A stretch of 11,825 nt of DNA, taken from a virus (Duplodnaviria; Heunggongvirae; Uroviricota; Caudoviricetes). The notes below the pieces were generated by a model, which had not been told where the DNA came from, did not search any database, and saw only the letters and a list, made by a program, of their open reading frames with translations. The position numbers and the translations under genes were made by a program. Every line of letters begins with the position of its first letter. Positions within the stretch are counted from its first letter, which is position 1. Where the stretch lies: positions 1-11,825 of IMG/VR virus record IMGVR_UViG_2778261009_000010. One strand, written 5' to 3'. Shown here piece by piece: positions 2,681 through 10,916 of this stretch.

Positions 2681-3391
2681 ATGGTTCAGAATGAAAAAGT
2701 GCGCAAAGAATTCGCCCAGCGGCTAGCGCAAGCCTGTAAAGAAGCTGGTCTTGATGAACATGGTAGGGGTATGGCCATAGCCCGTGCCCTTTCTCTTTCG
2801 TCCAAAGGCGTTAGCAAATGGTTTAATGCTGAGTCTTTACCGCGTCAGGAAAAAATGAATGCGCTTGCGAAATTTCTAAACGTTGATGTTGTTTGGCTTC
2901 AGCACGGCACTTCGTTAAATGGAGCGAATGATGAAGATAATACTCTTTCATTTGTTGGCAAATTAAAAAAAGGGTTAGTGCGCGTGGTTGGTGAGGCAAT
3001 TCTTGGTGTTGATGGTGCCATCGAGATGACCGAAGAGCGCGATGGGTGGCTCAAGATTTATAGTGATGATCCAGATGCCTTTGGTCTTCGTGTGAAAGGA
3101 GACAGCATGTGGCCCAGAATAAAATCAGGAGAATATGTACTCATTGAGCCTAACACCAAAGTATTCCCGGGGGATGAGGTGTTTGTCAGAACCGTTGAAG
3201 GACACAACATGATCAAGATTCTTGGCTATGACAGAGATGGAGAATACCAATTTACAAGCATCAACCAGGACCACAGGCCAATAACGTTACCTTATCATCA
3301 AGTAGCAAAGGTGGAGTATGTGGCTGGTATTCTGAAGCAATCTCGTCATCTGGATGACATCGAGGCAAGGGAGTGGCTGAAAAGTTTGTGA
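2681..3391 (+). CDS. cI: CI-like prophage repressor (N-terminal HTH, C-terminal S24/LexA-type autopeptidase domain), non-lambda immunity
   Basis: 236 aa; divergent from cro; C-terminal domain carries GDSMWPRIKSGEYVLIEP (Ser nucleophile motif) and a downstream MIKIL lysine, typical of LexA/CI family. Confidence 0.9.
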   Translation: MVQNEKVRKEFAQRLAQACKEAGLDEHGRGMAIARALSLSSKGVSKWFNAESLPRQEKMNALAKFLNVDVVWLQHGTSLNGANDEDNTLSFVGKLKKGLVRVVGEAILGVDGAIEMTEERDGWLKIYSDDPDAFGLRVKGDSMWPRIKSGEYVLIEPNTKVFPGDEVFVRTVEGHNMIKILGYDRDGEYQFTSINQDHRPITLPYHQVAKVEYVAGILKQSRHLDDIEAREWLKSL

Positions 3392-3468: not shown

Positions 3469-3497
3469 TTAACACATTGAATTAAAAAACCTACAAT
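3469..3497 (+). promoter_or_regulatory. Candidate internal promoter upstream of the cargo operon
   Basis: -35 TTAACA (3469-3474), 17-bp spacer, -10 TACAAT (3492-3497) in the 110-bp AT-rich gap after cI. Pattern match only. Confidence 0.3.
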
Positions 3498-3502
3498 ATT
3501 TG

Positions 3503-3835
3503 ATGAGAGGCGTTATGGAACCGGTCAAAATTAAACCATCTGTGGATTATATTGAAACCTATGCGGACTTCGCTAGTTTTGCTCCACTACCGGGAGCGGA
3601 AAAAAATCTCATTTGTATACATTTTATCGCAAACAAGTCAATACCTGCGGTACTATCCCAAAATGATATACCAGATCAACCAGGTAGAGCGAATATGCAG
3701 ATAGGCTCTGTAAATGAACTCAATCAGCAATGCACTGTGATAATGCCAATGGCACAACTAAAGGCTCTTCAGGAGAATATAGTTCTTCTTTTCGAACAAT
3801 TAGAGGCACAAAACTCTAATGGAGCGAAGTCGTAA
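3503..3835 (+). CDS. Hypothetical small protein, first gene of the cargo operon in the rexA position (start ambiguous: ATG 3503 or ATG 3515)
   Basis: ORF in the same orientation as cI; GAGAGG (3505-3510) precedes ATG 3515; stop overlaps the next start (TAATG at 3833-3837). No resemblance to lambda RexA that I can recognise. Confidence 0.6.
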   Translation: MRGVMEPVKIKPSVDYIETYADFASFAPLPGAEKNLICIHFIANKSIPAVLSQNDIPDQPGRANMQIGSVNELNQQCTVIMPMAQLKALQENIVLLFEQLEAQNSNGAKS

Positions 3836-4518
3836 TGCAACAACCGGAAGAAGTAGGTGATTTAACTATTACTTACAAAACATCAAGTATTGTTAAACCA
3901 CTGCAAGTTTCCCTGAATAACGTTAATACTCGCGATTTCATGATGTTCATGGAAACAGCAAAAGGTAATCTGTTTTCTACGCCTATTTCCTCTTATTCAC
4001 CAAAAAACATGGTGGATGATGCGACCAATTCCCAGCTAACTGCTACAATCGTAGATAAAGGAGGGGTTGCCGATTGTAAAGGACAATCTAATGTTATCCC
4101 ACCGTACGAGGAAACTCCTATACAGGGAACCGCAATGTCCGATTTGAGCAGAAACGAAATACAGGCACTTCTGAAGGCAAATAAAGCTGAAGTGGATGCA
4201 GTGGCCTCAAAAATGCAGGCTGATATGGCCAAATGGCGTGAACTAATGGCTTCAGATATAAAGGAGATGAAGCATTTAGTTGTTACTCAGCACGAACAAA
4301 TCAACAGTCGTCTGGACATACAATCGAGTAGAATTGAGAGTGCCCTTGACTCCCAATCAAAAAAGATCGATGCAGCTCTTTCTGTTCAAGAGGCAAAGTT
4401 AGAAGGTAAGCTTAGTGATGTTAAGCTTGATATAATCAAATGGGCCCTTGGCTTGCCAGCATTAGCATTTGCTGTATATAAAATCTACGGATTGCTCTCT
4501 GGAGTCTCAACCCCCTAA
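3835..4518 (+). CDS. Hypothetical coiled-coil protein with a single C-terminal transmembrane helix (tail-anchored), second gene of the cargo operon in the rexB position
   Basis: 227 aa; residues about 105-200 are rich in heptad-like charged/hydrophobic pattern (EIQALLKANKAEVDAVASKMQADMAKWRELMASDIKEMK...); C-terminus WALGLPALAFAVYKIYGLL is a 19-residue hydrophobic segment; followed directly by a strong intrinsic terminator. Confidence 0.7.
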   Translation: MQQPEEVGDLTITYKTSSIVKPLQVSLNNVNTRDFMMFMETAKGNLFSTPISSYSPKNMVDDATNSQLTATIVDKGGVADCKGQSNVIPPYEETPIQGTAMSDLSRNEIQALLKANKAEVDAVASKMQADMAKWRELMASDIKEMKHLVVTQHEQINSRLDIQSSRIESALDSQSKKIDAALSVQEAKLEGKLSDVKLDIIKWALGLPALAFAVYKIYGLLSGVSTP

Positions 4519-4523
4519 TACAC

Positions 4524-4550
4524 ACCCGGCCTCAGTGCCGGGTTTTCTTT
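4524..4550 (+). terminator. Rho-independent terminator ending the cI / cargo operon
   Basis: Stem cccggc (4525-4530), loop ctcagt, stem gccggg (4537-4542), then TTTTCTTT (4543-4550). Confidence 0.7.
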
Positions 4551-4740
4551 GCCCAACGTTCGCCCACCTAAAAACACATAATCGATTGTATTTATTGAAA
4601 AACTGATAGATACAACTTGCTAAACAGTGCAACCCTGATCCCTGCCCCATCACCTTCATCCTCAACATTTACAAAAATAAAATACCTTATATATCAAAAC
4701 CATATCTCGAGGAAACGAATGAACAACAAAATTTCGTACT

Positions 4741-4790
4741 TATGGTTCTTGATTGTATCGAACCAATAGTTCATTATTATCACCATCAGC
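4741..4790 (+). promoter_or_regulatory. Putative OL / pL region
   Basis: TTTCGTACTTATGGTTC (4741-4757) repeats the TTCGTACTT...ATGGTT motif of the OR region. Candidate -35 TTGATT (4758-4763), 17-bp spacer, -10 CATTAT (4781-4786), about 35 nt upstream of the nutL candidate and about 180 nt upstream of N. Inverted repeat TGGTTC(n10)GAACCA (4752-4773) spans the -35. Confidence 0.4.
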
Positions 4791-4823
4791 AGGACGCTGG
4801 AAGCCAAACGGAACAGACTGGCA

Positions 4824-4870
4824 GGCTCTTTAAACAACGTCGAACTCTCGACTACGTGGCTGAAAAGCCA
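4824..4870 (+). promoter_or_regulatory. nutL candidate (boxA plus two stem-loops) upstream of N
   Basis: gGCTCTTTaAACAACGtcgaactctcgaCTACGTgGCTGAAAAGCca: boxA-like GCTCTTT (4825-4832), hairpin gtcga/tcgac (4839-4852), and 5-bp stem with GAAA loop (4857-4870). Matches the minus-strand element at 2321-2367. Confidence 0.55.
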
Positions 4871-4968
4871 GATCACCCAACCACATAAGCTGTGGGATGC
4901 AATGCCGAAGCAACCGTCTCAGGAGGAGCTTCGAGATTGCATCGCCAAAGTTTATTCGGGAGGAATCT

Positions 4969-5241
4969 ATGTCCAGAAAAACAAAATTTAAAGGCACCGC
5001 AGCTTCTCGCCGTAGAGCCCGTCGCGCAAATCTGCAAAGTCAGGAGGCGATCAGCTCCGACAAGCTACACAGACCAACCCCTTCACGAGTGGTCTTGCAA
5101 TGCAAGCGCAAACCAGCAATGAGAGCAGAAGTTATAACTCTGACAACGTTGACCAGAAAATATGAAGGTTCAACTTGTCTTCCGAACGTAGCTCTTTACG
5201 CGGCAGGCTACCGGAAATCAAAACAACTGACGGCGAGATGA
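4969..5241 (+). CDS. N: N-like transcription antiterminator (P22 gene 24 / phage 21 N type) with arginine-rich motif
   Basis: RBS GGGAGGAA (4958-4965) then ATG 4969; 90 aa MSRKTKFKGTAASRRRARRANLQ... with N-terminal arginine-rich RNA-binding motif; C-terminus VALYAAGYRKSKQLTAR resembles the P22 gene-24 protein C-terminus as I recall it. The track ORF 4897-5241 is an upstream extension of the same frame. Confidence 0.8.
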   Translation: MSRKTKFKGTAASRRRARRANLQSQEAISSDKLHRPTPSRVVLQCKRKPAMRAEVITLTTLTRKYEGSTCLPNVALYAAGYRKSKQLTAR

Positions 5242-5257
5242 TAAATTAATTTGCTAA

Positions 5258-5839
5258 TTACTTGTTTTTGCCATGCTTATCCTGAGCGATAAGTTCATCC
5301 ATAAGACTGTCTTTCTTCCCAGCAAACCTAATGTAGCACTCATTTCTATAGCGTTCCGGGATAACAAAACGGTCGATTTCAGGATATCCAGTAGCAGAAG
5401 GTACCCGAATAAGAAGCCCTTTTTCGAGCAATGAGATTGCTTCAGGGCTTCCCTTTTCTGTCTTTAGCTGGTTATTAGCGGCTACAGCGAATGCCAAATA
5501 CGCTCTTTCTCCAAGAGTTAACGAATCAAACAAATCTTGCACGTATTTCTCTTCTTTAGATTTGCGCTTCTGAGCAGCGAATATCTCAATTCTTTCAGTC
5601 ACAGCGTGATAAGCGGAATTAACAACGCCGTTAAGCACATAGCTAACGCAAAACAACAGGATGTAATACATCCAGTAATGAGGAAGGATTTCTGGATTAT
5701 GCAGGTTTATCCATTCTTTTACGCTTACAGGCATAACAATAATCAATATGATCAGGATGATTAGCATATGAATCAACTGTTTAAGTGTCATTCCTTGCAG
5801 GAAAAAATGCATTAGTTCCTGCCACCATGAGTTGTTCAT
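5258..5839 (-). CDS. sieB: SieB-like superinfection exclusion membrane protein
   Basis: 193 aa, convergent with N, same position and orientation as lambda sieB relative to N/ea10; two N-terminal hydrophobic helices (LIHMLIILIILIIVMPVSV; HYWMYYILLFCVSYVLNGVV). Confidence 0.6.
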   Translation of the reverse strand: MNNSWWQELMHFFLQGMTLKQLIHMLIILIILIIVMPVSVKEWINLHNPEILPHYWMYYILLFCVSYVLNGVVNSAYHAVTERIEIFAAQKRKSKEEKYVQDLFDSLTLGERAYLAFAVAANNQLKTEKGSPEAISLLEKGLLIRVPSATGYPEIDRFVIPERYRNECYIRFAGKKDSLMDELIAQDKHGKNK

Positions 5840-6518: not shown

Positions 6519-6540
6519 ATGTATAAATAAGGAGCACACC

Positions 6541-6705
6541 ATGCAATATGCCATTGCAGGGTGGCCTGTTGCTGGCTGCCCTTCCGAATCTTTACTTGAA
6601 CGAATCACCCGTAAATTACGTGACGGATGGAAACGCCTTATCGACATACTTAATCAGCCAGGAGTCCCAAAAAATGGATCAAACACTTATGGCTATCCAG
6701 ACTAA
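6541..6705 (+). CDS. cIII: CIII (inhibitor of FtsH-mediated CII degradation)
   Basis: Manual translation from ATG 6541 (RBS AAGGAG 6529-6534): [54 protein letters not shown], 54 aa, which I recognise as lambda CIII. Below the 60-aa cutoff of the ORF track. Confidence 0.9.
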   Translation: MQYAIAGWPVAGCPSESLLERITRKLRDGWKRLIDILNQPGVPKNGSNTYGYPD

Positions 6706-9881: not shown

Positions 9882-10103
9882 ATGGCAGACATCATTGATT
9901 CAGCATCAGAAATTGAAGAATTACAGCGCAACACAGCAATAAAAATGCGCCGCCTGAACCACCAGGCTATATCTGCCACTCATTGTTGTGAGTGTGGCGA
10001 TCCGATAGATGAACGAAGACGCCTGGCCGTTCAGGGTTGTCGGACTTGTGCAAGTTGCCAGGAGGATCTGGAACTTATCAGTAAACAGAGAGGTTCGAAG
10101 TGA
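9882..10103 (+). CDS. TraR/DksA-family C4 zinc-finger protein (lambda Orf73-like RNA polymerase-binding factor)
   Basis: 73 aa with CxxC-x17-CxxC (CCECGDPIDERRRLAVQGCRTCASC), the DksA/TraR zinc-finger signature, and the size of TraR-type proteins. Confidence 0.8.
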   Translation: MADIIDSASEIEELQRNTAIKMRRLNHQAISATHCCECGDPIDERRRLAVQGCRTCASCQEDLELISKQRGSK

Positions 10104-10313: not shown

Positions 10314-10916
10314 TCATTCAGTATCATCACGCGTGGTCTGTGCATATGTCACTACCGCACCTAATGTATTAATTTTCTTTTCAACATAGATAATATTATC
10401 GTACTCATAATTGCCATACGGATAGCAAATGCGAATATCCTCATGTAGATCGGGGTCATCCACCTCAGCTCCAGAACAACTTTTTGAACTACCGGAAGTA
10501 TACCGATACGGTGCAACATAAGACGATGTCTCTCCAGGCAAAAAATAAGTTAGTGTTGTAAGGGGTATAATCAGAAAAAATCCAGAAAATATGCATATCC
10601 CTGCATAAACCTTAAGGTATGCTGACAGACTCTTCCAGCCGCTTTGTTTTACTATCCCCTTCTTAACCCAAAACAGAGATAACAGAAAAGCTATTCCCAT
10701 GCTAAACAGAATGTAATAGTGGGATATACTCTGATTAAGAAACGTGACCCTGTAGATATCTGCCCGCCACCAGAAGAAAAGGAAAATAAAGATCAGCCCT
10801 GAAACTGTCATGCAAATCAAATAAGGATACGAATCTTTTTTCATGTTTAGCGCCCATAAAATTTTTCCTGCCCCGGACAAATTTACCATCCATTTTTTGC
10901 GCAGAAAATAGCTCAT
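10314..10916 (-). CDS. Hypothetical integral membrane protein (3-4 predicted TM helices), low-GC moron on the opposite strand; start uncertain (ATG 10916 or internal ATG 10844)
   Basis: 200 aa with hydrophobic segments YLICMTVSGLIFIFLFFWW, YYILFSMGIAFLLSLFWV, ICIFSGFFLIIPLTTLTYFL and a roughly 60-aa hydrophilic C-terminal domain; coding sequence visibly more AT-rich than the lambda-type genes; opposite strand to the surrounding operon. Confidence 0.7.
   Translation of the reverse strand: MSYFLRKKWMVNLSGAGKILWALNMKKDSYPYLICMTVSGLIFIFLFFWWRADIYRVTFLNQSISHYYILFSMGIAFLLSLFWVKKGIVKQSGWKSLSAYLKVYAGICIFSGFFLIIPLTTLTYFLPGETSSYVAPYRYTSGSSKSCSGAEVDDPDLHEDIRICYPYGNYEYDNIIYVEKKINTLGAVVTYAQTTRDDTE

Follow-up and report, generated by a model that had tools for sequence, protein, structure and literature searches.

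A stalked protein and its coupled partner in the rexAB slot of lambdoid prophages: a candidate membrane-tethered exclusion module

The gene pair between cI and N

The stretch of DNA analysed here (the window; 11,825 nucleotides of the IMG/VR virus record IMGVR_UViG_2778261009_000010) is the early region of a lambdoid prophage, reversed in orientation relative to the lambda map, and the subject of this work is a pair of adjoining genes that lies between the cI repressor gene and an intrinsic terminator upstream of N, the slot that rexA-rexB occupies in lambda. The upstream gene, here called the partner (3515-3835, plus strand), encodes an acidic protein of 106 amino acids (pI 4.75; type A in the grouping described below) and has a ribosome binding site, GAGG, at 3508-3511. 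The downstream gene, here called the target (3835-4518, plus strand), encodes a protein of 227 amino acids that carries the RefSeq name 'CCDC90 family protein' (WP_001187007.1) and falls into phrog_14825 (function unknown; 8e-129). The TAA of the partner overlaps the ATG of the target (TAATG, 3833-3837), with a GGAG at 3821-3824; read from the sequence, the two genes are translationally coupled via this overlap. The terminator (4524-4553, plus strand) starts six nucleotides past the target stop codon and consists of a hairpin (ACCCGGC-loop-GCCGGGT, 4524-4543) and then TTTTCTTT, with the T-run. It is the equivalent of lambda Timm, and the matching terminator is annotated as Timm in the record of phage HK244.

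The slot is bordered on one side by the gene of a cI-type repressor with a helix-turn-helix (HTH) and an S24 peptidase domain (2681-3391, plus strand; HTH_3 and Peptidase_S24, the latter at 4.9e-16; LexA family regulator in RefSeq) and on the far side by the N antiterminator gene (4969-5241, plus strand, from the RefSeq start; N_peptide, 5e-32). N is adjoined by the superinfection exclusion gene sieB (5258-5839, minus strand; Pfam SieB, 1e-25; phrog_1301), and as judged from these matches the prophage is thus already equipped with one classical exclusion gene. There is no significant hairpin between cI and the partner gene, and the data do not support a terminator there (z = -1.39); read-through from the cI transcript may therefore also occur. 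A promoter-like site (TTAACA-17-TACAAT, 3469-3497, plus strand, 10/12 consensus match) adjoins the partner gene on its 5' side and is possibly the cassette's own promoter: this is a lead only, and the number of promoter-like sites in the region is not above shuffled expectation. The cassette is probably expressed in the lysogen. The GC content is 0.39-0.43 across the cassette region versus 0.50-0.55 in the replication and recombination genes.

The relationship to rexAB is most direct in HK244 and HK542, two isolated phages with lambda immunity, both of which have a partner of 144 amino acids (type B) and a family member of 206 amino acids between cI and the annotated Timm. As far as the stop codon of cI, the DNA of lambda and that of HK542 are 99% identical; similarity resumes at the rexB stop codon and Timm (92%) and continues through N (98.6%). 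Between these breakpoints, rexA-rexB of lambda (1.4 kb) is swapped in HK542 for the homologous pair (1.1 kb; locus L021, 2404-3509, compared with lambda, L052). That the two breakpoints coincide exactly with the stop codon of cI and with the rexB stop codon/Timm indicates a precise exchange of cassettes. Other E. coli prophages with the cro-cI allele of the window carry still other cargo in the same place: a HigB-family toxin, an HTH protein and an open reading frame (ORF) of 134 amino acids (L018, 1652-2993), a DUF3024 protein, a hypothetical protein, a Ser/Thr kinase and a small ORF (L019, 4575-6652), or a hypothetical protein of 299 amino acids (L020, 1644-2543). On these comparisons the cI-to-N slot is a hotspot of cargo exchange, and the region has been described as a mosaic hotspot with rexAB and bstA that probably shares the highly active repressor promoter (Owen et al., PMC8585504).

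Head, stalk and C-terminal tail of the target

An earlier reading of the sequence (the original prediction) had described the target as a globular N-terminal region followed by a long coiled coil and a single C-terminal membrane anchor. The ORF at 3835-4518 on the plus strand with its 227 codons for amino acids and both peptides quoted in that prediction are present in the sequence, and the three-part layout of head, long helix and hydrophobic C-terminal tail is upheld by the sequence and by an AlphaFold2 model, built as a monomer from an alignment of 90 sequences. The mixed composition that had been described for the first 100 or so residues is also found: this part is acidic and contains proline and glycine, and residues 101-200 have no proline and a single glycine. 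The model places a small β-β-α-β head at residues 10-72 (3862-4050, plus strand; predicted local distance difference test (pLDDT) scores of 59-81), with strands at residues 10-14, 23-27 and 68-72 and a helix at 32-46. It is followed by a linker rich in proline, glutamate and threonine (residues 73-105; 4051-4149, plus strand; pLDDT 48-61) that is modelled as flexible or disordered. Foldseek returned no structural match for the head, and homology between head and partner, as expected for a split or fused domain, was rejected (hhalign probability 0.2%).

The N-terminal 100 or so residues are poorly kept among relatives, with heads that are variable or missing, and strong conservation starts at about residue 101 (MSDLxRNELQALLKANKAEVDAVASxMxxDMAKWRE) and runs on along the stalk as far as the tail. 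In alignments of 28 and of 90 sequences, conservation within the family is highest in the neck, residues 101-136 (MSDLSRNEIQALLKANKAEVDAVASKMQADMAKWRE; 4135-4242, plus strand). Twelve positions are invariant among the 28 sequences (E108, A111, L113, K117, E119, V120, A124, M127, M131, W134, R135 and E136); among the 90 sequences, E119 is invariant and E108, A111, L113, N116, K117, A124, M131 and R135 are at least 90% conserved.

The model has a single uninterrupted helix from residue 106 to residue 222 (pLDDT 86-98), of which residues 106-202 (4150-4440, plus strand) form the stalk. The long helix of the original prediction thus stands, whereas its heptad-like spacing does not: across residues 106-202, the hydrophobic residues recur most strongly with a period of 11/3 = 3.67 (normalised power 13.7, reached by none of 5000 shuffles), and the heptad period of 3.5 is at noise level (power 1.26, p = 0.29), for which reason a heptad coiled coil was rejected. 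Eight repeats of 11 residues follow each other in one register from residue 120 up to the hydrophobic tail. In 12 relatives, positions 4 and 8 of this hendecad are hydrophobic in 100% of the repeats and position 1 in 39%, and all others are polar. Because the hydrophobic seam is so narrow and perfectly conserved, the stalk would form an oligomeric, near-straight coiled coil, and the same narrow seam (positions 4, 8 and partly 1) makes an amphipathic 11-mer helix on a lipid surface, of the apolipoprotein or synuclein type, unlikely. Pfam matches to Apolipoprotein, Baculo_PEP_C and NPV_P10 are far under threshold and reflect the repeat pattern. The stalk helix is about 13 nm long, is built of hendecad repeats and runs directly into the C-terminal hydrophobic helix.

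This helix, WALGLPALAFAVYKIYGLL (residues 203-221; 4441-4497, plus strand), is the putative membrane anchor. The original prediction had the hydrophobic stretch of 19 residues right, but six residues (SGVSTP), and not about eight, stand between it and the stop codon. Its view of the target as a tail-anchored protein without signal peptide holds as far as position is concerned, as the N-terminus is acidic and hydrophilic and the one hydrophobic segment ends six residues from the C-terminus; it falls short in that the anchor of this subfamily is weak. Residues 196-221 are the sole hydrophobic maximum of the target and there is no other transmembrane segment. The tail (203-221) has a Kyte-Doolittle mean of 1.49 over 19 residues and a Hessa sum of +4.5 kcal/mol (scale values of the 2005 paper) and includes a proline and a lysine. 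For comparison, SieB of the same window has values of 3.03 and -2.4 and the soluble cII reaches a Kyte-Doolittle mean of up to 1.48, and the Hessa sums of the window's soluble proteins are 6.6-15. The tail of the HK542 homologue has a Kyte-Doolittle mean of 2.71 and a Hessa sum of -0.7, and 76 of the 90 relatives have, aligned to the target tail, a segment with a Kyte-Doolittle mean of at least 1.6 (typically 2-3).

These values bear on the possibility that the target is a soluble or peripheral coiled-coil protein whose conserved C-terminal helix serves as a protein-protein or interfacial element and is not inserted at all. Its low hydrophobicity, with proline and lysine inside the segment and a soluble protein of the window reaching 1.48, would fit, and so would a tail sequence that is unusually conserved for a plain anchor (KLDIIKWALGLPALAFxVYKIYG). 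However, the same position is an unambiguous transmembrane helix in 76/90 relatives, the Hessa sum is more hydrophobic than that of every segment of the window's soluble proteins, and the spacing of small residues (glycine and alanine) fits a packed helical bundle; we thus consider a soluble target improbable. It is credible, mainly by homology to the unambiguous transmembrane helices of the relatives, that the tail is a membrane anchor.

Two lysines (K197 and K202) precede the tail and no charge follows K215. Because there is no signal peptide and the flanking lysines are N-terminal to the tail, the orientation would be N-in, with head and stalk in the cytoplasm and the tail in the inner membrane. 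The target does not match the spanin and holin lysis proteins. An i-spanin has an N-terminal transmembrane segment and a periplasmic coiled coil, and a holin has several transmembrane segments; the topology of the target is the opposite, with a C-terminal segment and without signal peptide, and the lysis genes of the same prophage are found at another place (holin and RrrD; L001, 1-289).

An anchored protein of this kind could also stop DNA entry or an early membrane step without killing the cell, as non-abortive superinfection exclusion like that of SieA of P22 or gp15 of HK97. The putative membrane association, the position beside cI and the probable expression in the lysogen would all agree with this, and distant relatives have Pro/Gln-rich tails of 30-65 residues past the transmembrane segment that would reach the periplasm. 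In the subfamily of the target, however, the six residues past the segment leave almost nothing on the periplasmic side, at which a block of injection acts; nearly all of the mass and every variable part of the protein would be cytoplasmic, and the prophage already has sieB. Exclusion at the stage of entry therefore appears to us quite unlikely.

The family, its partners and its relation to DUF1640

Among 5.8 billion clustered proteins, 34 relatives of the target were found, all from Enterobacterales (named genera: Escherichia, Klebsiella, Yersinia, Serratia and Providencia) or from metagenome assemblies. An exhaustive profile search through 1.84 billion representatives returned 190 relatives at E<=1e-3, and species-representative genomes add Xenorhabdus, Pantoea and Arsenophonus. 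As far as these searches reach, this is a small family with no members outside Enterobacterales. The cassette of the window is present at 99% identity or more in 40 of 5426 complete E. coli genomes, and near-identical cassette DNA is absent from the phage record collection.

Genomic context was examined for 31 distinct family proteins, 29 of them from IMG/VR loci. An abutting upstream partner is present in 29/31 contexts as assigned by script, and in 30/31 after manual inspection of locus L014; in the 29 contexts with a script-assigned partner, the distance between partner and target is -23 to +12 nucleotides. In 20/31 contexts, a gene for a cI-like repressor precedes the family gene in the same orientation. 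The order cI, small partner, stalk protein is found in E. coli, Yersinia, Serratia and Providencia and in metagenomic prophages, with at least six repressor alleles. The sole case without recognisable partner is a member of 146 amino acids that starts at the neck motif, has no head and follows an ORF of 281 amino acids (L041, 3001-3441).

The partners are of three types that are unrelated to one another: type A (about 93-111 amino acids), to which that of the window belongs, type B (about 142-165 amino acids, all-β) and type C (about 118-131 amino acids, with CxxC...CxxC). Type C partners, such as those at L037 (2508-2864) and L042 (2475-2870), have two CxxC pairs and stand next to short-headed stalk proteins; they are probably zinc ribbons, and no Pfam or PADLOC family matched them. 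The idea that a type B partner is a fusion of a type A partner with a head was rejected by comparison, and the label 'DUF3467' on one Providencia partner was not reproduced by a Pfam scan, nor did the literature offer anything helpful on it. When the N-terminal regions of the family are clustered, the clusters never mix partner types: long heads accompany type A partners, whereas proteins with short N-termini have a partner of type B or C. This co-variation of head type and partner type around a constant neck, stalk and anchor suggests that head and partner function together.

A small acidic protein that is encoded first and coupled to a membrane protein is also what a toxin-antitoxin-like addiction pair would look like, with the anchored helix bundle as a membrane toxin that is restrained by the acidic partner and with stabilisation of the prophage as the outcome; the HigB-type module in the same slot of a sister prophage points the same way. 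However, a simple membrane toxin has no need of a stalk helix of 117 residues and a variable head, and the member at L041 has no partner. We hold an addiction pair to be highly improbable, and it would in any case overlap an abortive-infection reading instead of excluding it.

In databases, the target is already assigned to the CCDC90 family, by precomputed Pfam labels as well as by its name in RefSeq. The match of the target itself to the Pfam model CCDC90-like (DUF1640, PF07798) has 28.1 bits (E 2.1e-6), which is under the gathering threshold of 33.5 bits, and aligns residues 106-214 with positions 63-167 of 175; profile positions 1-62, which hold the DUF1640 head, are left out. Of 90 relatives, 40 match this model at E<=0.01, the best of them at 2e-8. 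In the PDB, profile searches reached chain 6h9l_A, which is probably part of the set of Adlakha et al. (Structure 2019), at E = 7.6 only; the profiles A1 and A5 returned nothing relevant.

DUF1640 proteins are membrane proteins of prokaryotes and organelles in which the C-terminal stalk begins with the motif [aliphatic]-A-T-K-[polar]-[D/E] of a β-layer (Hartmann et al. eLife 2016, PMC4786415). The corresponding stretch of the target, K114-A-N-K-A-E119, matches this motif at the A, K and E positions, has N in place of T and mismatches at the first and the fifth position. In the AlphaFold2 monomer, K114-E119 is helical; a β-layer would arise only in a trimer. The target shares the layout of neck, stalk and anchor with DUF1640 and is possibly a remote homologue. 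These data stop short of demonstrating membership, and the target is most aptly seen as a version of this layout that is specific to prophages, has a head of its own and comes with a partner.

By analogy with this family, the target could be a membrane scaffold or regulator of the lysogen that has no anti-phage role and tethers the partner or a host factor, tuning host physiology or prophage induction. Eukaryotic proteins with the DUF1640/CCDC90-like layout (MCUR1/CCDC90B of the mitochondrial inner membrane) are scaffolds, and the target is free of toxin-like or enzymatic domains. Against this stands the restriction of the family to accessory slots of Enterobacterales prophages, with swappable partners and heads, which is typical of conflict systems, as well as the exact replacement of rexAB and the alternation with toxin-antitoxin and kinase cargo. 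A scaffold of this kind thus seems unlikely, if conceivable.

The remainder of the window has the expected early genes: P (309-1010), O (1007-1906), cII (1939-2235) and cro (2374-2601) on the minus strand and, 3' of N and on the plus strand, cIII, bet and exo in the gene order of the window. The cIII thermoregulator element (Rfam Lambda_thermo, RF01804) is found at 6528-6586 (plus strand, 88.5 bits), overlapping the start of the cIII ORF of 54 amino acids (6541-6705). RefSeq annotates the stretch over the N leader (4766-4991) as pseudogene of a 'frameshifted hypothetical protein'; it contains a boxA-like GCTCTTTAA (4825-4833) and a boxB-like hairpin (4839-4852) and, judged by eye, is more likely to be nutL than a decayed gene. 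At 10314-10916 (minus strand), an ORF of 200 amino acids with strong hydrophobic segments (Kyte-Doolittle 2.09, Hessa -1.9) lies in a low-GC patch (0.38-0.40) on the strand opposite to its neighbours; PADLOC models do not match it, and it looks like a second moron-like membrane gene. An ORF of 73 amino acids at 9882-10103 (plus strand) has CCECG...C..C spacing and, also judged by eye, resembles a C4 zinc finger of the TraR/DksA type.

Proposed function and comparison with known systems

We propose that the pair is a two-component exclusion or abortive-infection module that is expressed in the lysogen, tethered to the membrane and carried in the cI-to-N slot; for the statement as a whole we put the probability at roughly 45%. 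The target would be the membrane-tethered part of a two-gene accessory ('moron') cassette of lambdoid prophages. The small coupled partner would bind its head or neck end, partner and head would together sense an infecting phage in the cytoplasm, and the rigid stalk would carry the signal to the bundle of C-terminal helices. This bundle would then perturb the membrane or a membrane-bound target. The strongest argument for such a membrane-acting effector is the presence of the pair in the rexAB slot of lambda, with exact replacement of rexAB in HK542 and HK244: position and modularity are what suggest a Rex-like role.

Several observations weigh against this proposal. The pair also occurs at other positions in prophages (L013 and L016), and cargo beside cI is not always defensive. 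No version of the pair has a significant PADLOC match to a known defence system; matches to HEC-07, LmuB, HerA and JetC (E of about 0.01) all lie within coiled-coil regions and were discarded. The target contains no enzymatic, toxin-like or known pore domain, and NCBIfam returned nothing. Its own tail is by its composition only marginally hydrophobic, so that membrane insertion is not secure, and the sample on which the co-variation of head and partner is based is small and phylogenetically non-independent. There is no mention of WP_001187007, WP_000433877 or phrog_14825 in the literature that was searched, nor in the supplements of DefensePredictor.

A bolder version of the proposal, which we hold to be rather less likely than not, is that the pair represents an unrecognised family of modular two-component anti-phage systems borne by prophages, which in phages with lambda immunity would naturally take the place of RexAB. 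A constant effector (neck, hendecad stalk and membrane helix) would be paired with heads that can be exchanged and with three unrelated types of sensor partner (COMM-like β3-α, all-β and zinc-ribbon). A phage cue in the cytoplasm would be relayed mechanically via a rigid coiled coil of right-handed type, and the marginal, highly conserved C-terminal helix bundle would switch into the membrane or rearrange within it. If true, this would for the first time assign a function to a DUF1640-like protein from bacteria: the prokaryotic DUF1640/MCUR1 architecture is currently without a biological role, and the function of the cassette would supply one. No accessory slot of a lambdoid lysogen is expressed as strongly as the one between cI and N, which hosts both BstA and RexAB, the latter being the oldest abortive-infection system, with a mechanism that is still unresolved. 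As HK542 and HK244 are isolable phages in which the pair is interchangeable with rexAB, the proposal is directly testable with existing strains, and an anchored stalk of constant sequence with variable head and partner would be a tractable model for the coupling of a cytoplasmic signal to the membrane. Should the cassette have no phenotype, it would rank among the ordinary hypothetical morons, with a fold that is well described.

Several known systems resemble the pair in part. The E. coli proteins ElaB, YqjD and YgaM (DUF883) are helical proteins that face the cytoplasm and have one C-terminal transmembrane helix; they have no detected similarity to the target, are chromosomal stationary-phase proteins and lack both a partner gene and a hendecad stalk. 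Zorya ZorAB is a complex anchored in the inner membrane whose long coiled-coil tail lies in the cytoplasm and probably passes a signal between membrane and soluble partners. However, ZorAB consists of polytopic subunits, works as an ion-driven motor like MotAB and has no homology to the target, and the direction of signalling is opposite to the one proposed here. Closer in layout are the DUF1640/CCDC90 proteins (human MCUR1, CCDC90B and prokaryotic homologues), with head, neck, long non-heptad stalk and single C-terminal anchor; the clade of the target differs in being prophage-borne, in having a partner gene almost always, in its interchangeable heads and in the weak anchor of this subfamily.

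In genomic position, the pair resembles other cargo that is linked to cI. BstA of phage BTP1 (PMC8585504) and the Ser/Thr kinase cassette of the 933W type likewise reside in the slot after the repressor and probably share its transcription, and the kinase and similar cI-linked cargo alternate with the window cassette behind the same cI allele; these are unrelated proteins with different mechanisms, either soluble and DNA-associated or kinases. RexA and RexB have no recognisable homology to the pair (BLASTP E > 0.1), and the PADLOC models of RexA and RexB, which match the lambda proteins at 9e-110 and 9e-61 as positive control, miss the pair and its relatives. RexB is a polytopic protein of 144 amino acids and the target a stalk protein with a single tail, and RexA, with 279 amino acids, is larger than the soluble partners described here (about 100-160 amino acids). 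What the two systems have in common is their arrangement: both consist of two genes that are co-oriented with cI and lie between cI and Timm/pL, and in both one component appears to be soluble and the other membrane-associated.

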